Source of the DNA: Marsupella aquatica
Taxonomy: Eukaryota > Plantae > Marchantiophyta
Assembly (NCBI GenBank): GCA_973895155.1
Contig: OZ316891.1
Location: 15,965,037-16,029,036 of the forward strand
Length of the DNA: 64,000 nucleotides
Direction of reading: 5' to 3'
The notes under the pieces are model-generated. The model ran no database searches and had not been told where the DNA came from. It saw nothing but the letters and a program-made list of their open reading frames with translations. Positions 3,669 through 53,329 of the stretch are shown in pieces. Numbering within the stretch: the first letter of the stretch is position 1; each line of letters opens with the position of its first letter. The translations under genes were made by a program, and so were the position numbers.

Positions 3669-3681
3669 AAAACAAAGGCTA

Positions 3682-18382: not shown

Positions 18383-19239
18383 AGGTCACTATCAAAAACC
18401 CTTTTACCTTAGTTTATTGTTCACTTGTGAGGGGCCCACCTATTGGCCTTATCAGAGTATAACATGTGCCGCTATGAGCATGGTTGAGGTAGATTCTTAA
18501 TCCCAATCTTATCACTCAAAAATCCGTGCTTAGTTCTTGACCAACCAAAAAATAATTTGATCTACACGATTGATTGCCCGGATCCAACAATCCCCAATTG
18601 TGTCAAAAAACCACAACATTTGAATGTAGAAATACACAAGAATTGTGGCACCGGTTGGAGAAAATCCTCTCCCAAACTTAGCTAACTACAAATTGTAAAG
18701 GTTTAACAAGCTATACCTATCTTAATACAACTCAATTTTGGTCAAAACGACTCGCGACAAGGTGCTCAACCATGGATTTTGGGTATAACCACCATGACAG
18801 CAAATAATAAATAGATTTGCTGTTATGAGCAAATTTTTTGCTCGTACGAGCAAAAATTTACTCATATGAGGAATTCAATTACTCATAGTAGAAAATCTGT
18901 TTACTCATACAAGAAACTATTTACTTGTACAAATTTTCTAGGTTATTCAAAGTTGACAAAAAGGGCTCCATGTTAAAAAACAACAACCATATAAGCGCTC
19001 ACTGAAATGCTACTCACAATGGGGCCCACCATTCAATGATAAATAACAGACAATATAGAGGTCATTATAAGAAGATGCGCTTTATTTCACAGTCAATATA
19101 TTTGCTATCTGTTGCAAATTTTGGCTAGCGCCTGGCGCTAGCAACAGACACTACATATTTTTGGATAAGAAACGGGTACATCTTCTGCTCGGTAGAAAAG
19201 ACAAATGCCACTTAAAGTTGTTGAACGTCACCAAATTGA

Positions 19240-21832
19240 CTACATGTCCGTTTCATTTTGTCGATCAAGAAGGTAACGGACTTCGCCCAATGTCAAAAGT
19301 GGTTGACTAGATAGTGTCAAATCGTGAAGACTCAACTTCAACATAGTCCTGAATACCCAATATAGATGTTTGCAAGGCATGTAAGGTTTCCTATAAATGT
19401 GCCCCCGATAGAAATCCTCACATGAACAGCAAGGGAAACAACAAATCTGCACCCAATAAGAGGTACAGTCCTCTCATGTTCATGTGTTCTGATACAATAC
19501 TACTTCCCCCACGCATTCGCACTCGTGACATCTCTCTCACATACGAGTCTCATTACTTCTGTTTTGGATGCTTCGATCTTCTTGTAATGTGTTTGAGTTA
19601 GATTCACTCTCTGCAAGCACTTCCTTCCATTCTTGGAGCCACATCTGAAAATTGGGTCCGCTAAATTGATCCTCTCTTGGAACAAATTCACATCGATGCG
19701 TAACTCAGACGGGGATGGCTCTTGACCTTCCCTTATCTCTCCTGTCCCAATTAGACCTTGTTCTCTCAAGAATTGGATCTCGCCCTCCTGGAGATTGGTC
19801 CCTCTCGCAATGGGAAGAACGGGTGGTATATTGGGAATGTTTGAAACACCTCTTCTTGGCCAAATTTTGTAACATTTGTTGTTTGGGCAAAACCATATCT
19901 GGTCTGGATGAGGTTCTCCTCTAAAAAGTCTACATCCTTTTACAAATATTGCGACAACTCCTTCTGGATTTGGAAACCCAACCTTCTTTACTTGATTTTG
20001 ACATTCATTGCGGCTTCCTCTCCAACCGAGCGTCCTATTACAAGCTGGACCAGCACCACGTTTTGCAGTTCGTCGGAGCTGCCACAGACCTGGAGCTATG
20101 TCAGTTTCCATTGGGAGAAGAGATTCCTCAGGCGCGGCCTCAGCTTGATGTCTGACGGGAGGAATAGAAGATCTTGTCATTCGACGTGAGGGTGTCTCAA
20201 GGACGACAACCTTCTCAAAATCTTCATTCTCAGAATCTTCACTCTCAGTTTGAGACAAATTAACAACGCCACTTCCACCAGTAGAAGGTGTGGAAGACAT
20301 CTTCTCAAAGTCTATGGAATGGAGGTTTCTCCTCTTCAAACCCCTTGTATTTGGTGAAGTCACAAGGATAGTATCATGTCTGTGAGAGTCTTGTGCCGAG
20401 ACATTCCCACTTGCATTACCTTTTCATTTCACCGATCGAGTTATGACGTCTCCATTCAATGGAACAGTTCTTTCCAAATCAAATTCAGCTGCGTTGGAAA
20501 GAAGGAGATTGGTCGCTTCTTCAAATAGACGTGGAGACCCTGTCATGTCTGCAGATCTGAAATCCAGCTCAAAGATAGTGAGTTGAGTTCCCCGATGTAA
20601 TCCTTGACTGTATGCAGTATAAGCTGCGATCTGACATACGGCTCGGTTTTGGTCAATTTTGCATCCCTCCATGAGGCCAACCCGCTTCTTCATTTGCCAT
20701 GCCTTCATGCCTGCATGGACCAATTCCAAACCAGTACAATTCGGAATCATACCTGCCTCCTCAACACTCTTGCTCTGTCACCAAAAACAAATAAATATAT
20801 TTAGCAACTACAGTAATTTGCGACAAGTATAGTTTGTATTTCTGCTATCTGGTCTTTAACTATTAGTAGCGCCTGGCGCTATTAAATCTCTTGCATCAAT
20901 GTCATGTTTGTAGTTGCAAAAGTCTCCTTGTTCACACTAGCGCTTGGCGCTACTATACTGGAACAAGGCATTGGACTCAGAGTACTCATTTTCCATAGTA
21001 GCGCCCCTGGGCCCCCACTCCTTTCTAATACGGGGAGGACGTGAGAACCGTTCAAGGGTCATTTTTATCCCTTCGGCGGTAATTTTTATAATTCGCTTAC
21101 AATTCTGCAACCTCCGCATATATACCGAAACCACTTTGTAATTTTGCAAGATCCCTTGAAATGACATCCTTCTTACTTTTGTGAAAGGGTAAATCAATAG
21201 GTAGCAACACGTGACATCATATTGTTGGTACACGTGTCAAATTATAATTGGTACACGTGTATTATCCTTACAGTATCCATATCTCCTTCATAGATTAAAA
21301 TAGTAATACTGGCAGCTATGCTAAGCCAAAAAAAATTGAAGGGAGGATTGGGGGCGATCCTGGGGGGATGGACCGGGTGTGTGGAGTGAAATTGTAATAT
21401 ATGAAGGATAATTATTCTTGCCCAAAACTCCCTTTTGTAATACACTGAAGATACTTTAATAAGAGGAAATTTTTGGTTTTTATAAAAAACAAAGATAATC
21501 TCTATAGGAGAAAAATTAATAAGAAGGGGTACCTGTGTAGGGGAGGCTCACAGGTATGATTGTATAATATACAAAGAGTGAGGGCCCAGGGAGTAGCGTC
21601 GGATGCTATTACAAAACATTGGTAACGGACTATCGTGAATCTAAGAAAAGACTTACCAGTCTTATGAAGTTTCCCCACTGTCTCCAACGGACGACCTACC
21701 ATGAGAGCCATCCTTGCAACATTTGAAGCTTCCCCTAATGGCAATTTCCAGCTCACCACCAATCGTCGATCTCTCTTGACATACGATATGCGTCCAAAAA
21801 TGTTTTTGCATTACGAAGACCATCCCACATCT
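19240..21832 (-). pseudogene. MULE transposase A1 (end of exon 1, intron, exon 2 with SWIM finger), disrupted
   Basis: MWDGLRNAKTFLDAYR...VVRWRQWGNFIRL (21657-21832), PNCTGLELVHA, SWIM CSCEDF...PCKH (19240-19452). Paralog of 22432-26250 and 35601-39355. Confidence 0.85.
21005..21591. mobile_element. MITE (~587 bp) inserted into a motif-A palindrome in the A1 intron
   Basis: TIRs CCCTGGGCCCCCACTC and GAGTGAGGGCCCAGGG. 8-bp TSD AGTAGCGC (20997-21004) / AGTAGCGT (21592-21599). AT-rich non-coding interior. Confidence 0.75.
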
Positions 21833-22431
21833 GGGTATAGCGACGGAGACAGCAAACAGGCAAACAGGAAATACTTTTCTTGTTTGCCTTATGCTGTTAC
21901 CAGGAAAAAACATCTTGTACCAGGGGAAAGAACACACAATCAGCAGTTTAGAATTGTTGAAGTTGGAGTTAGTCCATTGCGGTGAGGGAGGATACCTTGT
22001 AATGAATTGCTGAACCACATAATAATTGAACCTTATATCCCAACACAAACAAGGGGGAGCATACATAAAAATGTCAAGGAATGCGCACAAAATGGTAGGT
22101 CCCACCACAATCGGCAACAAAATATATGAAAATAATACAAAATCAATGCAGCCCAAAACTTTATGTCATTATGTGGTCCAAAATAAAAGCGAACAACGAA
22201 TTGACTAGCGCCTGGCGCTATCTTATCGTTATTCAAGGAAACAAATAGTTGGCGTTGAGAACATAAATCACAACACAATGACATTTAACGGTGTAGCCTA
22301 GACGAAAAATTTACCAGCGCCTGGCGCTAACAAAACATGATGCGACATCAATAACACTATACCGTTGACATACGACAAAATCAATATAACCGTTTGGACC
22401 AATAATACAACCTACATCATCATGATTCATG

Positions 22432-25400
22432 CTATAAACGATGATCATTTTGCCTCTCTAATATGAGCCGAACCTCTCCAACAGTGAGAATTGGTTGGCT
22501 GGTCAATGTAGATTCCTCAACGTCTAGTTTGAAAACGGTAAGGAAAATCCAATACAAATGTTTGCAAGGCATATATGGATGTTTCCGGGAATGTCGCCGG
22601 TAGAAATCCTCACACGAGCAAGTGGGGAAAATGCAAATTTGAACAAAGTAACAATTTGGCGTCCGCATATTTTCGTGCGTTTGCACCTTAAACTGTTTTC
22701 CCCATGCATTCCCAATCGCAACATCCCACTCTCCCTGAATGTACATTGTCTGTTTTTTTGCAGACGCAATTCTGTTCATGTGACCCTGGGTAAGATTTGA
22801 CCGAGGAACCGTATTCCTCCCATTCCGGCTTCGGAGACGAACATTGGGTTCGAGAAGATTCACATGTTCTGGAAAGATATTGACATTGATTCGAAGATCA
22901 AAATCTGACGGGGGTCTAGTTGTAAGTTCATTTCCGCGCACTAGGGAGATTCCGTTGTCAAGAAGATATTGCAGCTCGTCCTCCGAAACATTTGTCCCTT
23001 TCAAAACGGGAAGAACATCAGGGAAAGGGGGAAAATTCAAGACACCTTGACGCGGGCGGCTTCTGTAACATGTATTGTTTGGGCAAAACCAAATCATTTC
23101 GGTTATGGGTTCCCCCCTGAAAATCCGTTGACCTTTGACAACAATACCGATAACACCATGTGGTGAGGGAAATCCAACTTTTTTCACGCGATTGCGACAC
23201 TCATCTCTTTCAGAATTACGGGAAAATGATCCATTGCACTGAGGACCAGCGCCAAATTTTGAAGTTCGACGTATTTGCCATGCAGCTAGAGCAACCTCCG
23301 TCTCACGGACAGGACACTCTTGTAACGGTTGCTGAAGCACGGAGGGAGCAGTCTGGGGAAGCCTCGTTGAACGCGTTCGGTCTCGAGCAGGAGGGGTATT
23401 GAAATCGACATCTTCTCCACCGCCCAATATGTCACTTCCAGACAGATTAACAATAGGATCAACTTGAGGCGTGGGGCCAGGGATAGCATCAAACTCCATG
23501 CGATTAAGATTCTTCCTTTTCATCGATCTAGTATTGGGCGAGGTGACAAGGATTTTATCATGCCTATGGGAGTCTTGTGGCGAGATATTCCCAGATGCAT
23601 GTCCTTTCCTCTTCAAAGACTTGGTGACAATGTCTCCATTGAGAGGTGCACGTCTCTCCAAGTCAAACTCGGCAGCGTTGGACAGTAGCATATTCATTGC
23701 ATCTTCATACAACTTGGGGGAGCCTGCTTGGTCCGCTGATTGGAAAGCGAGTCCCAAATTGTGGGACCTTTTCCTCTATGCAACCCTTTCCGATACGCAG
23801 TGTAAGCAGCAACCTGAGAAATAGCTCAATTTTGGTCCATTTCACATGCCTCAAAGAGCCCAACCTTTTTCTTCATTACCCATGCTTTCATACCTGCGTG
23901 CACGGACTCTGATCCTGTACAATTAGGAATCTTAGCCCCTTCTTCGACACTCTTGTTCTGCAATCACATAGAATAAAGTGTCTGTTACAGAACAAGAAAA
24001 CACTAGCGTCGGGCGCTAGTGAAGTGGACTTTGTCCTTAGAAGTCAAAACTGGCACTGTACATTAAGGGACAACTTATTTCGTCCTATTGTGTCATATGA
24101 CAGTTTGAATAAATGATAGCGCCAGGCGCTAGTATTAAAGGATGCTATGGTATTGTAATATTTGAATATGGATACAAACATTTTGAAATGAGAATATAGC
24201 ACTACAATACCTAAAGAGCGGAAAGCAAAGTAAACTAACTTACCAAACGAATAAAATTTCCCCATTGTCTCCACCTGACGACCCACCATGAAATCCAACT
24301 CTGGAGCATCCGGAGCTTCCCGGGGACACAGTTACCCGACTGCCACCACAAATCAATCTCCCTTGAAATTCTGTAAGCCTCTACAAACGTGGGGGCATTT
24401 CGCATCTTATCCCAAAGCCTACGATGCTCTGCTTGACTATCTTCAATCACTCCTTCAATCGAATGGCGATGGAAGGCTTGGTAGAAATGGAATGCATCAG
24501 TTCGCTCACGCTCAGGGTTTGGATGCCCTCCAAAAAAGACATTTCGTACTGCCAGCCAACCAGCTTGAGCATTGTCCGCCATGAATCCATGAATAATCGG
24601 ATTTTCTAATCCATTCTCTTTGGACACCTCAATCATTAGTCTCCAAGCCTTCTCGAACGACTCTGTATCCTCTGCTTTTAGTTCGCAGGTGAACAAGGTA
24701 CACAGAGCGCGATAGTTGTGATCATAAATATGCGCACTAAAAGTAACCCAATCTTTTGTAAGCCGTTTCATCACATCAAAACTTACCCAAGCACCTTCGA
24801 GACTTCCACCAGGTTGCATTTGTCTCAAAAGATCGACGCCTGATCCATGGCCGATCGAAGTCATCTTGAATATGTGAGGACGGTCTTCTTGAGATCCTTG
24901 ACGTGGTAGGAGGTACCTTTGGAGGAAAGGCATATTGATATTTCTTTGATACCGAACAAGAAAATCTAGTTCACCTCGACCTTTCTGGTCCTGTCTAACA
25001 CTACGAAAGAAGGACGCAAACTTCTGGGGTGTGGAAACTACCATGAGAGACTCAAATATCTCTGTTTCTTCAATATCTTGAATATCTTCCATACTTTCAC
25101 ACAAGGACTTTACAAAGGACCCTGTCGCCACATTTTTTACACCAGTAGGGGTGAAAATTGGATTTCCTTCCAATTTCTTTTTGATAACCTCCTCAACAAT
25201 CTTCTCTGCGCTCCGAGAAAACACCTTTCTTGAAGGATGGTTGTGGATCCCCATATGAATTGCCAAGCGGGACATGTGAGTACAGGTTTCTGAGTCAACT
25301 AGAACCTAGGGGTACATGTAAAATAACCTTGCTGGACAGGATTGGACACAAAACGGAACTTGATCACAAAATTGGCAAACAACTCCACCTTCGTCAATGA

Positions 25401-26250
25401 AGGAGCAAACACGATGTTGCCCGCCAAGTTTGGGGGTTCCACCCCAGGCCTTCTGGTTCCTCCTTTTCTTCCGCTGAAAATAGTCGCAAGTATTATTCCT
25501 ACACTCAATGGAACCAGTGCACGTTACTTTACCAAATTCCCAATATTTCTTGGGATGAACATTAGCTGATGTAGGAAATATTATGGTCCAGATGTAGCAA
25601 TCCTTTGACCGGTCCATGTCGCGTAGACGTGACCCCTTCGAAAGAGATGCCGTCGCAGGAGGCAACTCGAATACAATATTTCCATTGTATTTCTTTGGCA
25701 AACAGTCAACTTGTTCATGGAAGAAGTCCCGAGCCGCGATGAACCTCAAGATTTCACTGGAACCAGTTGACTTGAGAATGGTATCCATTGCACTTCTCCG
25801 ATACACAATGGAATTTTTGGTAAAAACTGCTGTAACCTCTTGTTTAACAGGGGTAACCTCCTGTTTAACAATGGTGTGAGGGGATTTATCACTACGCTCA
25901 GGCAAAGCAGGTCCATCATCGTCGCTATCTGAAAGCAGGACAACATCAACAAAGGGTTTGGATGAAGATGGGAGATCGGATGCGACTGGTTTTCAAATGA
26001 CAATAGAATACCAAATTCCTGCATTCAGGTGCCAAAAACGAATCCCGTCATCAACATCAAAAGAAGCAGTGAAATTAGAAGGTTCATCTCCATTTCCCTC
26101 CTCCAAAATGTCCTCAATGTCGTTCAAATCCAAACCAAAGCGCCCACAGAGATAATTCTCACTAACTTGCTTGTATACGTCATTGGCCGACAATGGAATG
26201 GATACAAGGTCACCGGTAGACGGACGCATCAGAACGATTGACCTCGACAT
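22432..26250 (-). pseudogene. MULE (Mutator-like) transposase A2: GCM/WRKY-like Zn domain, DDE core, SWIM finger
   Basis: CTGSIECRNNTC...CQFC...CPA...HMGIHNHP (GCM-like); WVSFD, FMADNA, DAFH and, in exon 2, NCTGSE fit the MULE D-D-(C/D)xxH-E pattern; CSCEDF...PCKH. GT-AG intron at ~23960-24240. Several stops and frameshifts. Confidence 0.85.
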
Positions 26251-26495
26251 TTTAAGATCATCCAAGCCAAAAACACTCAGTTCACGATAATGAATGGCGT
26301 CTTCGAATGTACACAATGGTATTCATAGTGAATAATCCGTTTGTCAGAGCCGTTATAATACGACAGAAACACTACCGGTCGAAAGCACATCTGACACAAT
26401 AAATGTTTTTTGTCGTTATGTCAACGACATTTACACTAATGAGCCTAAGATGTCCGTTTCCAAAGAGCATAATCATGATAATTAAATCATGTTAA

Positions 26496-26879
26496 TTGAG
26501 TAGCGCCCGACGCTACTCAAACATCCTACCTTCAACATGGACCCAAAATGGTGAAATATATGAGTAGCGCCAGGCGCTACTCAAACACACACCATAAATT
26601 ATGGTATAAAACTGGAATGTTTTATCCGGGTTTCAGAATAAATACTAAATGTTTGTAGCTAATTTTATTAATATTATCTAAAATATTACCAAAATGTGCC
26701 CATTTAATATTAGCGCCGGGAGCTAATCCAAAACGGTAATCATGACATTCATTTATGGAAAAATATTCAAAAATTGTATTCATTTGGCTTTTTATTGTAT
26801 ACTTGAGGGTGAATGTTGACCTAACTTTGGGAAATTTTGTGGTTTAAATTGTGATGATTTTGAGTAGCGCCAGGCGCTA
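26496..26879. promoter_or_regulatory. Cluster of motif-A palindromes in the divergent promoter region of A2
   Basis: TAGCGCC-N-GGCGCTA-like sites at 26501, 26565, 26711 and 26865, some with extended arms (TGAG...CTCA). Confidence 0.7.
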
Positions 26880-27209
26880 CTATTGACCAATATCAGATTT
26901 GAACTAGGAATATATATTAAATTCAACAAACTGTTCTTTAACGGTCATATTCAACGGTAACGTTAGGTCGCGTAACGTCGAAGATATGCCAACGGTATTC
27001 GGACAACTAATCCAGAATTGACAAGTGGCGCTCAAGAGATAGATATCAAAGTAGCAAGGGGATAGTTTAGAGATGATACTCTCCCCCCCTCCCTTGTCCG
27101 CTGTATTTAGGTTCCGTTTCGGAGGTTCTTCGTGCAAGAATTCTCTAGAAGAAGTACGGTACGAATGAGGTACTCATCATGATCGTGAAGCACTTCGTGT
27201 CTGAGAAAC

Positions 27210-30200
27210 ATGGACCTTCTCCCCACTACCTCGCATGGGTATAGTGCTAACGGGCAGAGAGAGCAGATCCATTCGCAGACATCCGAGTGCTCGTTTTCTG
27301 GATCTGTTTACAGTCGTCGAGTGACACGGTCTACAACATCCCAAGCTCCCAAAACAGTCTCTGTAGTCACATTTCCGAAGAGCAGGAGAGCAAAGATGGA
27401 CGATCTCGACACATATGCTGTGGAAGATCGAGGAGAAATGTCGCTGATGATGTCCGACGTTATCTCCAAGCATGTTATGGTGTTTGGCAAAGATTTTCGA
27501 GGGCACGACAAAGACCCCCCAAGGATTCCAATGTGCCGCTTGGTTCACATGGAAGTTGTCCGCACCTTACAGAAGGGAAGTCCTTCAATTGAAAAGTTGA
27601 CGGACTCTTTTCGTAGCACAGGATATAACTCAAAAATCGGAATGTTGTTCTATGTCCAGCCGACAGATTCGAATGGGAATGTCCAGACGTGTACTCCAGA
27701 AATTTGAGCTTCCTGGGACCCGATGTGGGTGGCCGAGAATGAGAAGTTTGAAGCTGAATGTGCGGCCGATCCAGACTTCATGGTGTTACAAGATAAGATG
27801 TTTTACGTTTTTGACGGTAACCATCGACTTTACGCATGGTCGATCGTTACGAAAGAAAATCCAGAAGATATCAAGTATCACCCGCGTGTGCAATGTACTA
27901 TCTTCAAGGGTGAAAAGGGATCTTTGATTGAGATTGAGGCGGCTATGCATACTGTGAACCAGTAAGTCTCTCGTTGAATTTCACTTATCCTTATCTTTTA
28001 TAGTGTAGTTTTTACTAGCGCCTGGCGCTATTGACTGACAAATTCTTCTGTAGACTTGGACAGGCCGTGGTGGAACCTTCCTGGATACTTGATGCAGACC
28101 GAATTAAGAGGATTTTGTCCAACGATCTAGAATACTACAAATCAATCATCGATGGGGCAAACTTCAAGAAGTTTGGGCAGGTGATGCAGAAGACTCGAAA
28201 AGGATCGTGGTATTCCAAGAAAATGCCTCAAGAAGCACTTCTGTATATCTTATGCGAGAATAAGATTAAATCCTATTCTCGACAATTCAAGATGGACATG
28301 GAGTCGGCTACCGCTAAGGGAAATCCTTGGTCTCAGGAAGAGACATCCAAACGACATGCGGTCATGATGAAAGAAGCAACGAAGGATTGGGCGATCAAGG
28401 TCTCAAAGATCACTCCCTTGTTGAGTCCAGAGTTTGAAGACTTCATGACAACCTGTGCTGAGATGTATCCGATGACCGAGGTGAACAAACGCGAGAAGAA
28501 ACCGGATGCGGTTGTCTGTACCATGGATCGTGCCAGGTTATTTACAGCAGTCTCCGCACTCGACCCCAAATTGAGGAGCACTTTGTTAGTAGCGCATTGC
28601 ACGCCAGAGCTCAGGAAGCAATTCTTTCATCCACAAAGTGTTAGTGATGACCCTGTGAAGCAGTGGTGCCACACTTGGCAAACTTGGAATAGTGTGGAGG
28701 GAATTGCTATTGGTATGCTGCAGACTGCCCTCCAGCAAATCAGTGAAATAATTCCTTCCAATCGATTGGAGGAATGGAAGTGTGAGTCTTATGATTCACT
28801 CGTTGAAATAGTGTGCAATGATTTCAAAAAATTTGGGGATGCAGTGAAAGGTAAGTTTTTCAATACGATGTGGATGTCCAAGTACCCGGACAAGGAAGAC
28901 TACACACTCAAGAATCAAAAGCGAGCAAAACGATATGTCTATCGTTTCTTCATGCACATGGAGATTGTGAAGCCTGACTATTTTTGGGCTTACCCAACTG
29001 CTTTCCAAAATTGGGTCATCTGCGCAGATGGAGACATTTTGGCCGAACTGTATTCGATGTATCCGGCTGAGGGTATACTTCCACCGAGGAAATTGTCAGA
29101 GTGGGAGAGAATTCACTGCCCTTGGTATCTTGACACCGACAGATGGGATTCTCCTTTTGACGACACTGAGAAGGATGCTTTCCATAAACTGTCTAAATCC
29201 CAAGTTCCGAGACAATTTGTCTCCGACATGAAGCAAGGAATTGAGGGGGACGTCAACTCGTCGACGACTGAGTTGCAAAAAAAATGCGAAACCACAGTGG
29301 TTCATGTTGATCGAAGCCGAAAACCAAGAGCCAAAGCCAAGGCGGATGCCCCTGTGGCAAGTGCTAGTGCCAAGTCTGGGAAAAAACGTAAGCTATACCT
29401 CCTTTTTCCGACTTCCTTCTTTGTTAGCGCCTGACGCTATCATGTGTCATGAGTTTAATGTGTCATATTTCCCAAAATTAATGTGGTGTGTTTGGTCAGC
29501 ACCTGGCGCTAACACTCTTTCTGTGCTTGACACCATTTTGGGTAGGTGGTCAAAAATCTGATGCCGCCACGGATGACACAAAAATCGATGCAACACTAGA
29601 AGTCTCTGAGGCCAACACTGGTGCCAATCCAGACCCCATCACCCCTGTTGAGAAGGGGCAGGTTATAGTTCCTGTGGATGCTACAAGCACAAAGAAGAAG
29701 AAGAAAAGGACCATCGATGTCTGGGAATCTTCTCGAGATAATGCTTCTGGGGCCGGTATCCAACGGGACGTGGGACTTTCAAGATCAAACTCGGAAGACA
29801 CTGTATGGTTGAATCAAGCTTGGCAGAATTTATTGATAGTGCATTTAGTAAGGAAGAGAAGCCAGATTGGGTCTCAGACGCTGAGAAGTGGGGTAAGGAT
29901 TTGATCAAATCAGGGTGTAGAGATAAAGGAATCATTCGAGGTGGGAAGGAACGATCATTTGGGGTGAATGCGGGTTTCATCTATCTCCCAACTGGTTTGA
30001 AACCCACAATTGTTGACCGTCGGGTCCCGAAATGGAATGTCACAGATCACACAGCAGCCGAATCATTCTTTTGGGCGATGGACCCTTTCCTTTCCGATGA
30101 CGGAATGCTCGCTATCTTATACTCGGATGACCACGATCAGATTTCCCAGGTCATTTCTGCATGTCAGCAATCCAAGAAGTTCATGTGCATCAATACGCAC

Positions 30201-30877
30201 AATGTTTTCATGTCTGTCCCAATGTACAGATCCAAGACAGATGTCCAGGTAAATATTCTCTCTCAGTATAGCTATACTAGCGCTCGACGCTACTCTTTAT
30301 TTCTTAGGAGGTCTTCTCTCATGAGTAAAAGATTTTTGAAATCCAGCTGGTTCGTCAACTTTTGCAGGTCTTCACTCTTAGACTGGACATATTTTGTCGA
30401 GTTTCTTTTAAAGGAAAGGTCCCAAAGGATCCAAGATTCAAGCCATTATCTAGCGCTGAAGATCCTTCAATCTCGAACCTTATTGGGCTACAATCTTTGA
30501 AGGAAGATCATTGTCCTGAACTCCATTTTACTGGGAATTCTCGACTGTCGGTTGGTTTTATGCAAACTGTCCTTGAACTCTTTACAATATCTAAGGATAT
30601 TGTAATTGATTGGACCGTCGGCTCAGGTAGTACGTTCATTGCTGGGGATTACTCGGGCCGTTTTGTCATCGGGTTAGAAAATCGTCGGGAGTTTGTTGAG
30701 ACCGCTTCGAGGATTTTTTTGGACCTCATTTCTCCAAAACCTTTGGAGACACAACCTCCCCCTCCTCAAATAACCGGACAAAAAAAGAAAGATAGACTTA
30801 GATTTGTCCTCAACTTTGATTCGGACGAAGATGATGGGACGCCAGAAGATGATGTTCCTGAGGATGTCAATGACGGC
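27210..30877 (+). pseudogene. ParB/Srx-like domain fused to a beta-class DNA amino-methyltransferase-like fold (copy A2), 4 exons, 3' truncated
   Basis: Exons ~27210-27961, 28054-29387, 29546-30248 and 30368-30877 with GT-AG junctions in phase. ParB-like RIPMCRL..EVVRTL..SIEKLTDSF.STGY and FDGNHRL. MTase-like GFIYLPTG, MDPFLSDDG, DIVIDWTVGSGST..AGDYSGRFVIGLE. TGA stop at 27705 and frameshift near 29775. Confidence 0.75.
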
Positions 30878-33800
30878 GTGATAGAAGGATCTTCAGTTGC
30901 AGAGAGGGGTCGAAACTTGGGGTCCTTTGGAACTTTAACCTTTGACGAAACACGACTGAACAGATCCAATCTCAATGTGAAAACCTGTGAAATCCCAACA
31001 AAGTCCATTGTTAAGATGCCGACGATCCAACCAGAAAATCATTTAAATCACGACATAACAATGAATTTTGGATAGCGCCAGGCGCTAACAAAGAATATCC
31101 CCTTAACCGAAAGGTATATGAAAACATTTTTAGCTAGCGCTCGGTGCTAACAAAGGACAGCACAAAGAGTGAGAGAATTTACCTGGCAATCACTTTGGGC
31201 CATGTACATTGGAACTCCCATAACCACGTTCAGGGTTTTCACACACTGAAACTTTTGAGACTCCTGGCTCGCGGCGATGACCTGCGAGATCTGATCATAC
31301 TCGCCGGTACGCAAAATGGCCAATATACCATCATCTGCTAGAAAGGGGTCCATTGCGCGAAAGAATGAACCAACAATTCTGTGATCTGGGGAATTCCATT
31401 TTGGAGACTTCTTCTCTAAAAGGGATGGGCGCAGTCCAGTTGAGAGGTAAACGAATCCAGCATCAACTCCAAATGATCTTATCTTCCCTCCTCTTATGAC
31501 TCCTTTCTCCCTTAGACCAAGCAAGACTAGGTCTTTCACCCACTTCTCCACATTTGACACCCAAGCCGGTTTCTGCTCTTTCGTGAACACACTCTCAAAG
31601 AAGTCCATTACGCTGGACTCAACAAAAACATGCCTAGAAGTCTTAGACTTGAACTGTCCAACATCTCATTGAACACCAGTAGAAGCGACTAAATCCCGAG
31701 AGGAAAATCCATGATCCAAAGATTTCTTTTTCTTTTTCTTCGTGTTGGTGGCATCTGCAGGTCGCACCATCTTCTCCGTGTTGGGAGGAGTCTGTTCATC
31801 AAGGACATCTTGTTCCCCCGTATCAGCTTCAGAGACTCCAGGAGTGATTATCGTCTTTGCATCTTGTGTTTCTTCTCCATCCAATTTCTGTCCACCTAGA
31901 AAAAGAAACAAAAGTTTCCAAGATTACGGTCCACATAACACCAGCGCCGGGCGCTAACCAAACTGCCCAAAAAATCAACCGATAAATAGACAACTTGATC
32001 AGCAGCGCTCATCAAAAGTCACTGACATAATCAAGCTGGTGGAGAGAAAATACAGAATGCCAATGGAAAATAACACCAGCGCCGGGCGCTAACCAAACTG
32101 CACAAAAATCAAGAAATAAATGGACACCAACATCTGTGGCGCTAAACAAAAAGACACCTAAATATCCAAACTAGTGAAGGGAAATACGGAATGCCAATGA
32201 AAAATAGAAGAATTTCACGTTTATTCCTGGATCTCGTTGATGGGCTGGTTACTCCAATGTCTACTTTTGCTTTCGCCCGGGGTTTTTGACTCCTGTCTAC
32301 ATGCAAAACTTCTGTTTCGCAATGTTTCTGTAGCTCGCTCGCCGAGGCATCTACATCTTCCGATAAACCTTGTTTCATTTCAGAGAGAACTTTCCAAGGG
32401 ACTAAAGACTTTGATAATTTCAGAAATGCATCCTTTTCAGCTTCATCGAAAGGGGTGTCCCACTTATCTGTGTCAAGATACCATGGATAGTGGGTTATCT
32501 CCCACAATGAAATGTCACGTGGTGGAACGTCCCCTTCGGCAGGGTACATTGAGTAAACTTCGCTAAAAGCATCCCCCTCTAGAACGGACCATTTTTGGAA
32601 TGCAGGAGGGTAAGCCCAAAAATACTCTGGAGAACTGGTCTCCATCGCCATGTAGAAGCGATACAGATATCTCTTGGCTCGCTTCTGGTTGCGAATGGTA
32701 TAGTCTTCCTTGTCTCCGTACTTGGACTGCCAAATTGTGCTAAAAAACTTTGCCTTCACTGTTTCACCGTATGTCTTGAAATCATTGGTGATGTTCAAGA
32801 CCAAAGCTTCAAACGTCTCCACTCCTCCTAGCGTCAGACGATCAGCAGGTAGGATCGACTGGACTTGCGAAAGAGATGTCTGTAACATTGAAATTGCAAT
32901 TCCTTCCACCAAACTCCACATGTGCCATGTATGACACCACTGTTTAACAAGGTCATCATTCACACTCGGGGGATGGTAAAATTGTTTTCTGAGCTCGGGT
33001 GTACAGTGAGCAACAAGAAGAGTACAGCGCAGTTGTGGATCCAAGTAGGAGACAGCAGTGAATAGATGCGCGCGGTCCATTGTACATACTACAGAGTCCG
33101 ACTTCTTTTCTCGTTTGTTCCTCTCCGTAAGAATGTACATTTCTGCACAAGTTGACAGAAAATCACCAAACTCTGGGCTTATCAGGGGGTAATCTTGGAT
33201 GTCTTTATGCTCCACTCCTTCGTTGCCTCCTTCATCATGGCAGCATACCGCTTACCAGTCTCTTCAGATGACCACGGGCGACCTTGACTTGTCGCAGCAG
33301 CCAAGTCAAGCTTAAATTGAAGTGAATACGACTTAATCTTGTTTTCACACAAGATGTAAACCAATGCTTCCAATGGCATCTGCTTGGTATACCAAGACCC
33401 CTTTCTTGTTTTGGCACGAACAGTTTGAAATCGCTTGAAGCTTCCGGGGTCGATGATCGGCTTTGTAGGCCTCCAAGTCATGAGTTAAAATCCGATTGAT
33501 TCTATCAGCATCGAGAATCCACAATGGTTCCACCACAGCTTGCCCAAACCTGTAAGGTATAATGGCAAATATTAGTGCCTGGCCGTAACTAACTTTGCAA
33601 AAATCAAGCGCAATCGACCAAATTCAATAGCGTTTATGCAACTTGAGGAATACTTACTGGTTCACCATGTGCATAGCTGCTTCAAGCTCAACTAGAGAAC
33701 CCTGATCTCCCTTAAAAATAGTGCATTGAACACGCGGATGGTACTTGATATTGTCTGGATTCTCATTTGTTACTTGGGTCCACGAGTAGAGTCGATGATT

Positions 33801-34367
33801 CCCATCAAAAACACAGAACATCTTATCCTTTAGAATGTGGAAATCTGGATCAGTAGCACATTCTGCTTCAAACAAGTTGTTCTGGGCAACCCAAACAGCA
33901 TCCCATGTCTCCCGAATTTCAGGTGTGCAGAATTGAACGACTCCTTCTGAATCCGTGGGCTGGACGTAAAACCGCATCCCAATTGAAGAGTTGTATCCAG
34001 AGCTCCGAAACGAATCCTTGAGCTTATCGATAGATGCACTATTTTTTTGTAAAGTCCAAACGATTTCCATGTGAACAAGCCGACAAAGAGGGATACGCGG
34101 CGGCTCTTTCTTCTCCCCTCTGAAATCGACTCCAAATGACATTGCGTATTTCTCAATCACAGCATCCATGGACAGGACTCCCTTGCCACCGTCCTCCATC
34201 GCAAAATCTCCGTATGACTCCATGATGCCTCGTTTTGGCTTTGAAATCGACTGACTAATGTTTCGCAAAGAGTTCGACGCAGACGAACGAGTGACTCTCC
34301 GAGTATAAACTGATCCGGAGAATGAGGACTCAGATGTTTCAGAATGGCCAGGAGAATGATTCTCCAT
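30878..34367 (-). pseudogene. ParB-MTase-like gene, copy A3 (3' truncated at the junction with A2)
   Basis: Paralog of 27210-30877 with the same intron positions (VNQ|LGQAVVEP; CQ|VFTLRLD), FDGNHRL, GFVYLSTG and MDPFLADDG. Homology stops at EDPSI (~30878). Confidence 0.75.
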
Positions 34368-34760
34368 GTTTGTTTAAGATGCACACACGGGGAACCCGCA
34401 CCTCAACGTGCTTCTTGCGTGATGCAATGTTTCTTGTGGTGTTGTACCGATATGGACGAATGATTGACAACGATCCTAAATGTGCGCAGAGGTCGTTCTA
34501 ACGATCAAGGAAGACACTATCACAAGAAGATCTTATCTGATATACCCTGTGGCAGACCGACATGTATCACAAGTACACATCGAAAAGCATGAGCATCCAA
34601 AAGCAGACCTACTAAAGGTTGACACTTGTCACATTTTAACTAGTTTATAGGTACTCATGAATATATTTATCCAGGAATTCGTTATAAATTGTAACGATAA
34701 ACGGTCAAAGTTACCGTTTAAAAACACTGTTTATGTCAGTATTCTACTTCGATCTAATAT

Positions 34761-35361
34761 TAGCGCCTGGCGCTATTATTATGCTAGACTAAAATATATC
34801 TTAAAATGAAGGATTTTAATAATAGCGCCTGGCGCTAGTAACATTGTACTAAAAAATCATGCGAATGATTGGACTGAAGCGAGAAAGATTTTGTAATAAA
34901 CGGCTTCTATTTCTATAAAGAATATGAAAGTGCCAGGCGCTATTTTTTTTTTAGTCTCAAATAGGGAAAAAATGTGTAGATTTCAATAATAGCGCCCGGC
35001 GCTAGTAACGAGACACCTCAAAATGGTAGATGTTTGGACACGAAATGTGTAAGTTTCTATAAATAATGTACGAGTACATCTTGACATTTTAAAGAAATTT
35101 TATGATAGCGCCTGGCGCTATTATTGTGATAGCTTCTACTCGATCTCAAATGGATCGATTTTAATATAAGTAGAGGGTAATATTGTCGTCTGACATAAAT
35201 AAGGGGCTATTTCCATGGAAACCCGATATATTTCCAAGGAAACCCGAAACCTGTCGTAGAATGTTAACCTGTGTCAGTAACCAAAATGGCCGATGATCTT
35301 TGCTTTTGTTGTTCATTTTTTGGGCTCTTTCAGATGTGGAAAACGCTAGCGCCTGGCGCTA
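34761..35361. promoter_or_regulatory. Cluster of motif-A palindromes in the divergent promoter region of A3
   Basis: Sites at 34761, 34823, 34928, 34990, 35106 and 35347. Five have perfect 7-bp arms. Confidence 0.7.
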
Positions 35362-35600
35362 CTATATTACCCCTTTGGTTACAATGTCAAAACCATTAAT
35401 TCTCCAGTAACTATCCGCCAAATATATGGTTTTGTCGTTTCTTGAACGGTAAGAAAATCCGTACCCAACGGATCCTATAACCGCTCGATGGCTCTTTCCG
35501 TTTGAGACTTGGATTTAGAAGAAACCCTCAACCATCCAAACTAGTTTCATTTTACAATGTATCATTATTTTATGTAGTCGGTTATCTTTGGGGAGTTAGA

Positions 35601-38600
35601 ATGTCTCGCATTATTGGAATAATGTGTCCGAATATAGGTGACGTTGTGACGATCCCTGTGTCGATTTCCAAAACCAAGAAACGTGTTAGTCATAATTACC
35701 TGTGTGGAAGATTTGGGGTGACGAGAAAACATATTTTGAGTATCAGAACTTTGAACGATGGGCCCGCTCATTTTGATACTGAAGCGGAGGACGTTGTTTG
35801 GAATCTCGAATATGGCGTGGAGTACTTGATTTTCATTCAACTAAGGGACATCGTTTATGTCAAGGTGGAGACGCATCAGGTTGCTCACGATGTGATTGAC
35901 CTTACGTCCGACGCTAAATGCTCTGAGGGTTCTCCACCAATCTCAAAGGGCGGTGAGGTCAATAAGGAGGGCGAAAGTACCAGTTTGTTGACGCCCCAGG
36001 TACTCCCCGTATTGATTGCGTCAGAGAAGTCTGATGATGGAGACACTCTAACTCGTCCTGTTCTGGTTGTGTACAGAAGAAGCGCACTTGATGCCTTGTT
36101 GAAGTCAACTGGACAAAGTGAGTTATCGCGCTTTGTTAGGTCTGAGGCATTCATTCACAAACAGGTTGAATGCTTACCTATAGAGTACAATGGGAATACC
36201 ATATTTGAGCTTCCACTTGTTGAAGGTGTTGGCTCGAAAGGGGATCGTCTACGAAACATGGATCGATGCAAGGACTGCTACCTCTAGACTAGAATCCTTC
36301 CTACTTCTGCTAATGTCGTTCCAAAGAAGATGTGGGAGTTTGGGAAAGTAAGCTGTAGTGGTTCTCTTGAATGCCGAAATAGAGCATGTGAGTTTTACAC
36401 CAGGACTCAAGTCAGAAACTGTAATGGATGGGATGGGACCCCCAAGCTCTCTGGTCAGCATTGTCCTGGGAGGTTTATCGATGCTGGAGGAATTGTTTGT
36501 CGCTATTGCCTTCAAGTTCCATTTTGTGTTGAGTCTTGTCCAGCAAAACTGTTTTATATGTACCCGCAAGTTTTGATCGAAAATGACACTGCAAAACACA
36601 TGTCACGACTTGCAATCCATATGGGAGTGCACAACCATCCATGTCGGAAGGTCTGGTCTAGAAGTGCTAAGAAAACAGCAATAGAAGAAATACGGAGACA
36701 ACATGAGAAGTCTCCTTCTACACCGTGCGTTTTGAAAAATGAGATCACTGGATCTTTAATGGATGCCGTAGGTGAGTCTATGGATGACATTTCAAAGCTA
36801 GAAGAATCAGAAATCTGGAAATCACTTATGCTCATTTCAACGCCTCAGAAGTTTTCTGCGTTATTTAAGAGCATTCGCAAAGATCAGGTTGGTCGAGGTG
36901 ATTTGGAATATCTGGTTTGCATGCAGAAGAATGTTACGTTTCCTTTTCTCCAAAGATATCTTCTTCCTGGGCAGGGCTGTAAAGGTGATAGAGCGCATAT
37001 TTTCAAAATGACTATCAAAGGTCATGGATCAGGAGTAGATTTACTGCGTCAGATGAAGAAAGGGGGGCCTCTAGAAGGAGCATGGGTGAGCTTTGACGTG
37101 ATGAAAAGGATGTCGAAAGAATGGAGTACTTTTAGTGCACATGTGTATGACCATAACTATCGAGCTTTGTGCACAATATTTACTTGTGAACTCAAAGCAG
37201 AGGACACTGCATCGCTTGAGAAAGCTTGGAGGTTGATGATCGAAGTCGCTTTGGAGAACGGTTTAAACGGTGTGGAAATCCATGGTTTCATGGCGGATAA
37301 CGCTCAGGCGGGATGGATAGCGGTTAGGAATGTCTTCTTTGACGGCCATCCAAACCCGGAGAGAGAGCGATCGGATGCATTCCACTTTTATCAGTCTTTG
37401 CATCGGCACTCTATCGAAGGAGTACTTGACAAAAAACGTGTTGAACATCGAATCCTTTGGGACAAACTGTTGCGGAATGCCGCTTCATTTGTGGAAGCCT
37501 ACAGGGTATCACGAGAGATTGATTCATGGTGGAGATCTGGAAATTGTATTCCTGGGAAACTTAGAATGTTGCAAGGATGGATCGCTTGGTGGGTTGTGAG
37601 GTGGCGTCAGTGGGGAAATTTCATACGTTTGGTGAGTCAATGTATACTAGCGCCTGGCGCTAGTATTAATATCCCTTTTCTAATTGTGATATTTACTGAT
37701 GTTTTTGCCAGCGTCTGGCGCTAACGTACGAATAGCTTGATAGCTTCTTCAATCTTCACAATAATCATGAAAACATTCATACCTTTCGTCCGCCCATTTT
37801 GAAGTTCCGCTTTATTTTTTATTCGCTATATTGTACTGAATTTGACAAAACTCTTTTTCAGAGCAAAAGTGCACTTGAAGGGGGGATGATTCCCAATTGC
37901 ACTGGTTCTGAAGCTGTTCACGGAATCATGAAAGCATGGCAGGGAAAGAAAACAGTTGGTTTGTTCGAAGGATGTAAGACCGATCACAACAGAGCAATCT
38001 CACAAATAGCAGCCTATACAGCATATCGTGAAGGGCTCCATCGGGGTACCGGTCCAACAGTGTTTGAATTGGCTTTTCGTTTGGCTGACCAAGCAGGGTC
38101 CCCGAAACTCTTCGAAGAAGCCTCTAATATGTTACTCGCAAATGCAGCAAAATTTGATTTGGAGAGGGATTCTCCATTGAATGGGGATTTTGTGACGAAG
38201 TCTATGAAAAGAAAAGGTCCGGCGACCAGGAATGTCTCTCCACAAGACTCCCATCGACATGACACGGTTCTCATAACTACGCCAAACACCCGAGGTTGCA
38301 AGAGGAGAAATTTGACCTCAGCCGAGTTTGAGCACATTCTGATACTTAGAACTCCTCCTTCGAATCCAGCTATCGATTTGTCTGAAAGTGGCTCTCCAGT
38401 TTCCCATCATGTCACTCAATCTTCCGAAGTTCCAGAAAGTGTTCCAAACACCACTCCATTCATTCCTGTAGACACTTCGCTTTTTGAAGTGGATGTTGTA
38501 CCCGGGTCGTGGCATTTGCGGAGAGTTTCCAGACACGGTGCTGGACCTCAGTGTAATGGGACGTTGTTTGGAAGTTGTGATCAAGATGAGTGTTGTAATC

Positions 38601-39355
38601 GAATTAAGAAGGTCGGATATCCTTCAAATGCAGGGGTTGTCGGAATAGTCGTCAAAGGTTACCGCTTATTTAGAGGTGAACACCATCCAGAGCTTGTCTG
38701 GTTCTGCCCCACTCGTGATTGCTGGAAGAGCCGCCCTCGTCAAGGTATTGTGAACCTCCCTACTTGCCCAGACTTTTTGCCAGTACAGAAAGGCACTCGT
38801 CTTTCAAGTCTGGAGTTGAATTTCCTTCACGAGCAGGGAATTGAAGTCTCGAGAGGAGGTGCTATTTCACGTTGTCCTTCTCCATTTGAACTGAGAATCA
38901 ACATTGACGTTTTCCCTGAAAAGATCGATCTTGCACAAGTCAACATCCATTTTCAAACAAGAAACGGGCGTGCGATGATCTCCAGATCAAATCTCACTCA
39001 GGAATATCATAAAAGGATTGAATCAGCAACGAAAAAAACAATGACTTTGATCAAAACTATGGAAGTTTCATCAGGAAATTCATACGGAAAACAATTCCAG
39101 ATACGCACACATGCACATTTACGAACTGCAAATACTTATTCGGTGCAGATTTGCATTTTCCCTTGTTGCTCTTGTGAAGATTTCTTTCGTCGACATTCTC
39201 GAGGGAAACCTTTCATGCCATGTAAACACTTGTACTGGGTTTACAAAGTTATCTGCAAGCTTGATCCTGTGGACAATATCCTCCCAAGCCAACCGATTCT
39301 TACCATTGCGGAACTGCGTTATATTCTAGCGAGGCAGAATGCTGATGGTTTATAG
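35601..39355 (+). pseudogene. MULE transposase A3, nearly intact (one premature TAG seen), 2 exons
   Basis: ATG 35601 (MSRIIG). TAG at 36285 where A2 has Trp. GCM-like CSGSLECRNRAC...HMGVHNHP, then WVSFD, FMADNA, DAFH; intron 37632-37861; PNCTGSEAVHG; SWIM CSCEDF..PCKH. Confidence 0.88.
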
Positions 39356-40168
39356 GAAGGCTTAGTATTCTTGTTTACGTTCAACGGGTATGTTGGACTT
39401 GTCGTTTTGTAACGGTAACCTTGTTTTGGTTAGCGCCCGGTGCTAGTAAACAACATTTGGTTTCTTTTCAACACGGCTCAATGTTTTGTGGGTTGCACAA
39501 AAAACTAAATTTGTTTTTACAATTTTACGGATGTGTAAATTTCATTGTACGGGTCACTTGGACTTCAATTTTGTCACTTGGACTTCAGTTTTGTTAGCGC
39601 CCGGCGCTAGACTTCATTTCCTTACTTGGTTTCAGTTTGTAGTTTCCAGGTCTGAACGTGTGGATTTCTTTCGCATGCATTTTCGAGGATGACCTTTTCT
39701 TGCCTTAGAAACCGTTATCCTCTGATCATTCCGGTAGATGTTGAGCGGGTATTTTGTTAATGATATTTTGTAACGGTATCGAACGCTTGGTTAGGACTAA
39801 GCGCTAGTAAAGGCATCTTCCGATAATTGTCGTTTTCCCCATCTTTTTGAGTTGATGTTGAATTTGACCTCTTTGGTTTGGGTCAAAATTAAGCCGTTTT
39901 TTGTCAATGATAGTACAAATTCTCTTGTTTTGTTCAACTATTTTTCCTGTTATGATCATCACTGTTTCCTGTTTCTTGTCACGGAGGTCGGGCCCTCCTA
40001 AAACTAGAAGTTGACGCGACCTCCTCCACTTAGACACCTGTAAATGAACAATTCGATTCTCATATTATGCAATTGCAAACAACCACGCGACCGGGCGCGT
40101 CACTCCCAAAATATAAAGTTCAATTTCAATCAATTTATAAATAATAATTGATAATAAACAATAAACGT

Positions 40169-40939
40169 TTACTTATTGGACTTATCCCGGGCTTCTATAG
40201 CACGGTCTTTTTCGGCAAATAAGTATTTCATAAATTCGTCAAACTTTTCTAAATGGTCTTTATTCCCCTGATTACGAATGATCACATTTCTCCTCCAATG
40301 ATTCATCTTATCAATATAATCTCTCTCAAGATTTTCTTGAGAGAACGTTGGAATCCCATATCCACTAAGGAGCTCGTGGAATGTCAACTTGTCAATTGAC
40401 ATGTCGCATAGATATGGATATAGTTTCTTTCTAAAAAATAGGTCATCATCGAGCCCAGAATATGCATCGGGATACAACGATGAATAGAAGTCATTAAGGC
40501 TCGTCTTATACGCAGCATCATCGATAAGAATGACATTCTCGATGTTGTAATCTTTAATATCGGCGGCAATGTTGGAGAGACATTTGACAAATAAGGGGAT
40601 GTCATTATTATTCTTTCCAATAAGTTGAGTTGATTCTTGTCCCCATATAAATTTAATACGTTTCAAAACTTCGGGTCGAAGTATCAGCCTTACACAAGAT
40701 AGAATATTCCGTTTGAACATGCACGACCAGATCGCAATATCGTATAGATCTGCCACCTTCTCAAGAAATTCCATGAAATCAGGCCTTGGATAGATAACCT
40801 TGTGCATCTGTCTCACACCCCATGACCGAATGGGCATCCCAGGGCTGATCTTCTCTGACCAGATAAGTACCCGATTCAGATTGAAAATTACAAGTCTCTT
40901 TTGAACCGGTGACTTCTTTGCCGATGGATCAGGCGCCAT
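40169..40939 (-). CDS. FCP1/NIF-like (CTD small phosphatase-like) HAD domain exon
   Basis: KRLVIFNLNRVLI (degenerate DxD/DLNG), YPRPDFMEFL, IAIWSC, FVKCL, NVILIDD. Confidence 0.75.
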   Translation of the reverse strand: MAPDPSAKKSPVQKRLVIFNLNRVLIWSEKISPGMPIRSWGVRQMHKVIYPRPDFMEFLEKVADLYDIAIWSCMFKRNILSCVRLILRPEVLKRIKFIWGQESTQLIGKNNNDIPLFVKCLSNIAADIKDYNIENVILIDDAAYKTSLNDFYSSLYPDAYSGLDDDLFFRKKLYPYLCDMSIDKLTFHELLSGYGIPTFSQENLERDYIDKMNHWRRNVIIRNQGNKDHLEKFDEFMKYLFAEKDRAIEARDKSNK

Positions 40940-41118
40940 CTATACCTGTGATGTTTGTGCCGCAGGGTTTGGAGAACATACTAGAACGATCTGTTTGTTT
41001 CCCACCTCCGAACGGTCACCGGACTTCCGGACTGGTGCCTTCGATACTCGATCAGGGGGTTTCAGGATAGGCTTCTGTAAAACATTAAGAAATGAAAATA
41101 AGTTTATAACGCGAACAG

Positions 41119-53264: not shown

Positions 53265-53329
53265 ATAAACAATTCTTTGAGAGACTGTGATTTTTTGGGG
53301 TCACAACGTGACAAATCATAAATGTTGCT

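Follow-up and report, generated by a model that had tools for sequence, protein, structure and literature searches.

The analysed window is a 64-kb stretch of the Marsupella aquatica contig OZ316891.1, and all positions below are window coordinates. It contains three nested or abutting copies (A1, A2 and A3) of one DNA transposon family. A2 and A3 each consist of a two-exon transposase gene opposite a divergent second gene, here called the cargo gene, with A3 being the mirror arrangement of A2; over long aligned blocks, the two copies share ~67% DNA identity. The predicted cargo protein joins a ParB/Srx-like N-terminal domain and a helical middle domain to a methyltransferase-like C-terminal domain, and the non-coding DNA of the family is marked throughout by a palindrome, TAGCGCCNGGCGCTA, a putative protein-binding site.

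A1 is a remnant (18781..21832, minus strand) that starts with the terminus GGGTATAAC at 18781 and retains the 3′ part of the transposase gene with one intron, a SWIM motif at 19366-19428 and palindromes at 19126, 20867 and 20938, before being interrupted at 21833 by the terminus of A2, GGGTATAGC. The non-coding end of A2 (21833..22431) holds palindromes at 22206 and 22315. Beyond it lies the A2 transposase gene (22432..26250, minus strand; exons ~26250-24244 and 23957-22432), which contains in-frame stops and intron palindromes at 24004 and 24117; its catalytic D, D and E motifs fall at 24763-83, 24565-82 and 23898-915, respectively, and its SWIM motif at 22558-620. The divergent intergenic region (26251..27206), with palindromes at 26501, 26565, 26711 and 26865, separates it from the four-exon cargo gene (27207..30880, plus strand). 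The first cargo exon, which ends at 27961, encodes the ParB/Srx domain with the sequence FDGNHRL at 27810, the second (28054-29387) the helical domain, the third (29546-30248) the first half of the methyltransferase domain with motif IV (YLPT) at 29982, and the fourth (30368-~30880) motif I (DWTVGSG) at 30608; intron palindromes lie at 28016, 29425, 29497 and 30278.

At ~30880, the A2 and A3 cargo genes abut tail-to-tail, and the natural 3′ end of A2 and both cargo-side termini have been lost at this junction. The A3 cargo gene (30880..34367, minus strand) comprises exons 34367-33658, 33549-~32219 and 31895-31183 and a stub of exon 4 (30984-~30880, 35 codons), with FDGNHRL at 33789-33809 and intron palindromes at 31073, 31135, 31942 and 32077, plus a three-mismatch copy at 33573. 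Homology between the A3 and A2 fourth exons ends after ~106 bases (~35 codons), and because of this truncation the A3 cargo lacks motif I, which binds S-adenosylmethionine (SAM). Next come the divergent intergenic region of A3 (34368..35600), with palindromes at 34761, 34823, 34928, 34990, 35106 and 35347, and the A3 transposase gene (35601..39355, plus strand; exons 35601-37631 and 37862-39355), with intron palindromes at 37648 and 37709. It encodes a Cys/His-rich N-terminal region (36354-36641), catalytic motifs D, D, DAFH and E at 37095, 37296, 37374 and 37910, and a SWIM motif at 39167-39229. The non-coding end (39356..39995) carries palindromes at 39431 and 39595 and closes with the terminus GGGCCCGAC, read inward from 39995. 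An earlier, sequence-only reading had placed the family at 18781..39800 and had described a Mutator-like transposase paired with a divergent four-exon gene bearing FDGNHRL. The pairing holds for both copies, FDGNHRL is present in both and A2 indeed has four exons, but A3 breaks off ~35 codons into its fourth exon; the range itself falls short at both sides, since A3 ends at 39995 and one of the 30 palindrome sites (15419) belongs to a miniature relative outside it.

None of the copies is intact. In the A2 cargo gene, exon 1 is interrupted by an in-frame TGA and exon 3 by a frameshift; in A3, exon 2 of the cargo gene contains both a stop and a break in the frame. The transposase genes of both copies carry stops, and no gene copy is free of stops or frameshifts. 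In four public runs, 2,142-6,112 contigs matched the stretch at ≥80% identity, with every one of the 30 bins covered, and the contigs that span the stop of the A2 transposase at 25306-25308 lack it, which together argue for a large, high-copy family.

The miniature, non-autonomous relative (336 bp, 15240..15575) is multi-copy and sits in the coding region of a copia element. It has two palindromes 22 bp apart, at 15397 (three mismatches) and 15419 (one mismatch); T15424C, which makes the palindrome perfect, is found in most contigs over the element, with short matches there including other parts of the family. The element is flanked by a 9-bp target duplication (CGTCACGTG/TGTCACGTG, one mismatch), and a joint corresponding to the empty site skips 345 bases (336 + 9). 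Contigs that end loosely with unlike flanks numbered 20, 8, 17 and 10 at position 15240, and 9, 4 and 9 at position 15575 (three runs). Its ends share a ~20-bp imperfect subterminal match and have no long terminal inverted repeats. The target duplication of the family is read from this element, as A1-A3 each lack one end.

For the predicted structure of the transposase, Foldseek ranked ISCth4 best (E values 2.4e-4 and 7.5e-4), followed by Hermes, and the longest VIA match was also to ISCth4 (Z 6.6, root-mean-square deviation (rmsd) 10.1, 172 residues aligned), among tied helical matches. The transposase conforms to a DDE RNase H-like core with a helical insertion, the catalytic D, D, DAFH (CxxH-type) and E were located in the sequence, and a SWIM zinc finger (CSCED...CKH) was recognized by pattern at the C-terminus in all three copies. 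Since the predicted fold, the catalytic motifs and the 9-bp duplication agree, assignment to the Mutator/IS256-like transposases, as first proposed from the sequence, is supported. Pfam did not contribute to it: PF10551 was matched by none of 18 aligned transposase members, and the family proteins gave no match to MULE, SWIM or GCM domains. A profile search of solved structures with the transposase alignment returned nothing significant, and for the N-terminal part, where model confidence is low, no DNA-binding fold was matched and no GCM or WRKY match was listed. Element termini are short and dissimilar, and the ends bear other short repeats (AAACAG and TTRCTC); Mutator-like elements without long terminal inverted repeats (non-TIR MULEs) exist. 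Sixteen relatives of the transposase, at 45-65% identity, were found in unannotated assemblies.

For cargo exon 1, HMMER found 207 relatives (E ≤ 0.001); the pattern [DE]GNHR occurs in 93 of the 150 listed homologs, and 35 had no match to it. The fold was established on a homolog from Riccia sorocarpa (P0182, 1,207 aa), in whose predicted model the N-terminal domain mostly exceeds 90 in predicted local distance difference test (pLDDT) score. Its VIA neighbours are KorB (Z 7.6, rmsd 2.6, 95 residues aligned) and, over the same region, PadC (6.9), SerK and the pNOB8 ParB N-terminal domain (both 6.3), Srx (6.0), SbnI and Atu1540, while Foldseek placed Noc and ParB first at E values of 0.25 or worse. 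Although the Z values are modest, seven family members matching one region, together with the GNHR motif, support a ParB/Srx fold for the modelled N-terminal domain. In the ESM Atlas, the window's own ParB exon was nearest to DUF3723 clusters (0.95-0.96, with DUF3723 on 31-92% of members) and to a ParB_N cluster. The cargo matched neither PF02195 (ParB) nor PF12520 in Pfam, DndB was weakly matched in 3 of 36 members, and profile searches of solved structures with the ParB alignment gave nothing significant. The conserved positions of the domain are an Arg, the GNHR motif and an Asn, and the residue preceding this Asn is variable and not Glu, whereas the 'EN' motif of ParB carries Glu. Srx, SerK and SbnI use nucleotides other than cytidine triphosphate (CTP). 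The predicted fold allows a CTP clamp but gives it no specific support, because no helix-turn-helix (HTH) of the ParB type was matched, the Glu is not conserved and ParA is absent, each copy holding a transposase and a cargo gene only. The helical middle domain, modelled as part of P0182, has no assigned fold, and no HTH match was listed for it.

The other end of the cargo protein is supported, by sequence similarity, as a beta-class amino-methyltransferase homolog. Exon 4 of A2 matches PF01555 (28.5 bits against a cut-off of 26.7; E 1.8e-6), the closest solved relatives are DpnA (E 1.9e-4) and MboIIA, a Riccia domain (P0183) scores 0.94-0.95 to PF01555 clusters in the ESM Atlas, the motifs follow the beta-class order IV...I, and motif I is intact in A2 (DWTVGSGS). 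The predicted model of this domain stays below a pLDDT of 50 and was unusable, and profile searches of solved structures with the exon-3 alignment, the methyltransferase alignment or P0183 gave nothing significant. Active beta-class enzymes carry a motif IV of the form [DNS]PP[YFW]. The window copies read YLPT and YLST, where Tyr stands in place of Asp and Thr in place of the aromatic residue, and the five relatives that cover the motif read DLPT (twice), DMPS, DFPI and DVPF; Asp is thus kept in all five, and the aromatic residue is missing in four. The cargo proteins of the window are therefore probably pseudo-enzymes, and one fern version, in which the motif reads DVPFG, could be active. With regard to what had been anticipated for the cargo protein, the ParB/Srx-like N-terminus is confirmed at the level of predicted structure on the Riccia relative, with KorB at Z 7.6; the methyltransferase-like C-terminus applies to A2 but not fully to A3, which is without motif I; and the proposed fold and domain check gave the PF01555 match and ParB/Srx structural neighbours but not PF02195.

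As judged from sequence comparisons, relatives of the family occur in liverworts and ferns, with full-length or long cargo relatives in Riccia sorocarpa, Adiantum nelumboides and Adiantum capillus-veneris, and an exon-2 relative in Calypogeia fissa; among viral contigs, no relatives of the transposase or the cargo were found. Because P0182 matches all four window cargo exons (exon 3 weakly, E 0.03 within the proteins compared), the fusion of the ParB and methyltransferase parts appears to be conserved. UniRef calls P0180, P0182 and P0183 of R. sorocarpa 'Trimethylguanosine synthase', a label that is probably wrong for what look like ParB plus beta-class methyltransferase-like proteins. Between A2 and A3, the proportions of nonsynonymous (pN) and synonymous (pS) differences are 0.16-0.23 and 0.82-0.85 (saturated) over the four cargo exons, and 0.16-0.24 and 0.70-0.85 over six usable gene comparisons, which omit the 5′ part of exon 2 and the transposase C-terminus, being out of frame or misaligned. 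These values point to purifying selection on all cargo exons that was active until recently, despite the present damage.

In the 64 kb, TAGCGCCNGGCGCTA occurs 15 times exactly, 10 times with one mismatch, 5 times with two and 3 times with three, compared to cumulative expectations of 0, 0, 0.1 and 0.85 at 0, 1, 2 and 3 mismatches (20 first-order Markov simulations). All 30 sites with up to two mismatches fall in the 6,597 non-coding bases of the family and none in its 14,954 exonic bases as defined by the gene models, which corroborates the claim that about 30 copies are confined to the non-coding DNA of these elements. Eight of the nine introns hold the palindrome, the ninth having the three-mismatch copy mentioned above, ten sites are located within the divergent intergenic regions, and sites reach ~9 kb from an element end. 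No other part of the 64 kb contains the palindrome at this threshold, whether unrelated non-coding DNA or the introns of a neighbouring element. Its 15-bp core, as originally described, is real, but the motif is longer, both flanks favouring N-Y-(A/C)-W (Y in 59 and W in 58 of 60 half-sites); it contains CCNGG and GCGC, and variants with spacers of 0, 2, 3 or 4 bases were not found in the window. Flank pairing within a copy is no better than in shuffled sequences (for offsets 1-9, p 0.10-0.96; for offset 10, p 0.04), so a hairpin was dropped as an explanation, and the symmetric flank preference without copy-specific pairing favours a dimer that reads sequence, binding by a dimer being implied by the symmetry itself. 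Beyond the motif, the flanks of different copies show no relationship (at best 21 of 40 identical, 11.4 on average), and hence the sites do not represent a single duplicated unit; the pair 31942/32077 does sit in a 138-bp duplication. Among spacings below 250 bp, values close to whole numbers of helical turns are favoured (R 0.61 at 10.4-10.5 bp, n = 16, p 0.013), an effect that weakens to p 0.14 once the 61-64 bp spacings are collapsed to one, so that helical phasing of the sites is only suggestive. The placement of the palindrome supports its interpretation as a selected, family-bound, putative protein site.

The motif also appears to be old, since it persists in distant relatives and in the miniature derivative. 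A read-through scan of 29 proteins and a comparison of five relative loci (1.0-2.1 kb each) showed that P0004, a transposase exon at 54% identity, translates into an intron palindrome as SARR-stop, that P0020/P0021, cargo exon 2 at 37% identity, do so as LAPGAS, and that, on a contig with a transposase at 60% identity (L001), the same intron of the transposase gene holds three copies with a zero spacer. On this contig, positions 1111-1298 show an extended zero-spacer form, ~ATATTGC-TAGCGCC-GGCGCTA-GCAATAT, a natural specificity variant.

A second, unrelated element occupies 40000-53900 on the minus strand and is interrupted by the A3 end at 39995; a gypsy element is inserted in one of its introns (~47270-53270). 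This element has a palindrome of its own, ACGCG-N6-CGCGT, with 12 copies at up to one mismatch (0.45 expected), of which six lie in introns (40085, 41109, 44006, 44045, 45862 and 45897) and the remaining six in an 80-bp tandem array (53371-53800). It encodes Ulp1 (PF02902) and NIF (PF03031) domains, and no transposase was found in it. By eye, its gene shows a ParB-like ILGG-stop-HT (~46230) and methyltransferase-like YFDPSS and CFGEG; neither these motifs nor homology to the A1-A3 family were significant in profile tests. Elsewhere in the window, four related GC-rich repeats of 1.3-1.5 kb (5432-6903, 9771-11254, 16923-18383 and 56250-57506; 82-90% identical) are probably long terminal repeats of one retrotransposon family, 59508-61757 (minus strand) contains long reading frames that are degenerate and strongly depleted in CpG (observed/expected 0.31), and low-complexity tandem arrays lie at 42960-43440 (an EKAEA-type coding repeat of the second element) and 54900-55200 (a GAGCGA/GACAA repeat).

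We tentatively favour, with a probability of roughly 45%, a reading in which the cargo protein binds the palindrome and acts against silencing in a VANC-like manner without methylating DNA. The cargo protein would bind the element's own palindrome as a dimer, recognizing it through the helical middle domain, the ParB/Srx domain may serve as a nucleotide-controlled switch, and the methyltransferase domain may have been kept as a SAM- or DNA-binding scaffold; once bound, the protein would keep the element open against host silencing, and miniature copies would be licensed as well. The tagging of introns, intergenic regions and ends is the layout reported for VANC21 sites, which lie in introns and in intergenic and terminal non-coding regions of Arabidopsis VANDAL elements (accessible text of PMC5735166), and the unrelated neighbour combines a different intron palindrome with a ParB-like gene recognized by eye. 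Several observations weigh against this interpretation. Co-occurrence cannot separate the cargo from the transposase as the binder, because both travel together here; VANC motifs change fast, whereas this palindrome has been conserved between highly divergent copies, and it persists in a miniature element for which transcription is unnecessary. In addition, a ParB-type HTH was not matched, the VIA matches to ParB/Srx structures spanning only model residues 12-193; four of the five relative loci (27-45% identity, with little non-coding DNA) show no such palindrome; and none of 150 ParB-exon homologs carried a read-through signature at its terminus, a single internal match probably being due to chance. 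The CpG observed/expected ratio of 0.64-0.79 in the family, compared to 0.31-0.41 in two neighbours but 0.97 in a gypsy element, is a weak indication of reduced methylation.

The most serious competitor, which we nevertheless regard as unlikely, is that the transposase binds the palindrome, probably via its Cys/His-rich N-terminal region, to gather or synapse the element ends, the cargo having another role. This would suit the miniature element, which retains ends and palindromes, the latter mostly in perfect form in the contigs, as well as the short, dissimilar termini with only short imperfect inverted repeats, the helical spacing of neighbouring sites and the conservation of palindromes beside transposases at 54-60% identity. 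Most sites, however, are not subterminal but lie far inside the element, within introns and promoters of the cargo gene, different short repeats are found at the ends, the phasing does not survive the single counting of the 61-64 bp spacings, and the N-terminal part matched no DNA-binding fold, albeit at low model confidence. Somewhat more doubtful is an extended version of self-binding, in which a ParB-fold protein would act as a nucleotide-gated clamp loading on its own palindromes and spreading element-wide, with the pseudo-methyltransferase shielding from or sensing host methylation; this would be a eukaryotic self-recognition device resembling ParB/parS. ParB-fold accessory proteins with family-specific palindromes would then give the DNA transposons of lineages ranging from algae to ferns an anti-silencing module that is general and transferable, and the window would contain two independent cases of it side by side. 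Conservation over lineages far longer than that of VANC motifs, and presence in nearly every intron, would also be expected if a host protein read the palindrome or if it acted in RNA as an intron hairpin or splicing signal, with the element having accumulated copies to exploit the host. This is improbable in view of the absence of the palindrome elsewhere in the 64 kb, the different palindrome in the neighbouring element's introns, the ten sites in divergent intergenic regions, the flanks that do not extend pairing and the change of spacer from 1 to 0 bp between families.

Self-marking, in which the cargo would be an active N4-cytosine or N6-adenine methyltransferase modifying the palindrome or DNA nearby in a restriction-modification-like manner, had been among the functions first envisaged. 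The beta-class motif order, intact motif I and above-threshold PF01555 match speak for it, as do the proximity to DpnA and MboIIA and to ESM Atlas clusters (for the Riccia domain), the selection on exons 3-4, the motif IV Asp in all five relatives with DVPFG in one fern protein, and the fact that the Marchantia genome is modified by a beta-class N4-methylcytosine enzyme (10.1101/2021.02.12.428880, accessible text). The loss of the acidic and aromatic residues from motif IV, which had previously gone unnoticed, makes marking by methylation unlikely for the window copies, and with the aromatic residue missing also from four of five relatives, we hold this explanation to be quite improbable overall. 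The neutral alternative, that the palindromes are by-products, such as products of local duplication or traces left by a very small mobile unit, tolerated only outside exons, is already disfavoured and appears highly improbable: exon avoidance alone would be expected of any insertion and one pair does lie within a duplication, but the outer flanks are unrelated, half of the sites are perfect although the synonymous sites of A2 and A3 are saturated, and unrelated non-coding DNA contains none.

The cargo architecture and the self-binding hypothesis are already in print and are not new, because brown- and red-algal elements precede them, and the novelty first attributed to this arrangement was overstated; what follows reflects the accessible text of the cited sources. 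The Sola1-1_Ec32 element of Ectocarpus encodes, on the strand opposite its DDE transposase, a 1,104-aa accessory protein with ParB-like and N4C/N6A methyltransferase parts, which its authors propose to bind and modify its own element and to represent a possible new class of accessory protein (Dinatale et al., PMC12477816). By description, it resembles the Marsupella cargo in combining both parts in one protein opposite the transposase, and differs in belonging to a Sola-1 element of a brown alga, as opposed to a Mutator element of land plants with a degenerate motif IV; the accessible text mentions no dispersed palindrome for it. Red-algal Plavaka elements carry the accessory genes PAG3 (ParB) and PAG2 (PF01555), with homologs in Mutator elements of Chondrus, and inverted-repeat arrays adjoin PAG3, for which self-binding was proposed (Petroll et al., 10.1101/2025.02.11.637652). 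They share with the present family ParB and PF01555 accessory functions, repeats near the ParB gene and the same self-recognition hypothesis, but in the algae one gene fuses ParB to a 2-oxoglutarate oxygenase and another the methylase to SET, compared to one protein here, and the algal repeats form tandem arrays, whereas our sites are dispersed over introns, promoters and ends.

With VANDAL/VANC, the family shares a Mutator-like element, an accessory gene and a short motif in non-coding DNA; the VANC motifs, however, are non-palindromic 8-9-mers, tandemly arranged and fast-changing between families, with proven binding (PMC5735166), and VANDAL/VANC is described as the only case in which binding to the system's own element, and its de-silencing, have been demonstrated (10.1101/2025.02.11.637652). 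Likeness to bacterial ParB/parS, Noc and KorB consists in the predicted ParB/Srx fold, a GxxR-type motif and a ~16-bp palindrome in multiple copies; the differences are the lack of ParA, of a matched HTH and of a conserved 'EN' Glu, and, as to the clamp, Srx, SerK and SbnI score within 2.2 Z of KorB on the cargo model. The fungal, Starship-associated DUF3723 provides the nearest ESM Atlas clusters to the ParB exon, but PF12520 is not matched here, the element type is another, and the accessible sources show no methyltransferase link. MpDN4MT1 of Marchantia is likewise a beta-class amino-methyltransferase in a liverwort genome, but it is a host gene with an intact TSPPY motif, active genome-wide in sperm, and 'ParB' is absent from the main text of the paper (10.1101/2021.02.12.428880). 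A chlorophyte fusion of ParB-HTH to a Dam-type methylase belongs to a different class (Iyer et al. 2016, PMC4738411), and the accessible text of PMC12730594 does not mention ParB.

In a literature search that left most subscription journals, Repbase reports and the supplements of the Bostrychia preprint outside its scope, we found no description of the land-plant Mutator family, of the degenerate motif IV or of the palindrome. What is new, then, is that the host element is a Mutator of land plants, that the enzyme is degenerate and that a candidate site can be defined. Should the binding domain be confirmed, it would constitute a new module for sequence-specific DNA targeting, and the degeneration of the methylase indicates that the step of modifying the element's own DNA may not be what selection keeps. 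The algal papers, in their accessible text, propose self-binding by ParB accessory proteins with no binding sequence named and no test reported (10.1101/2025.02.11.637652, PMC12477816), whereas in the Marsupella family a candidate site is precisely defined, has a natural variant with a different spacer and is retained by a miniature derivative; together with the full-length relatives found in annotated liverwort genomes, this makes the algal proposal testable, including in a transformable liverwort.

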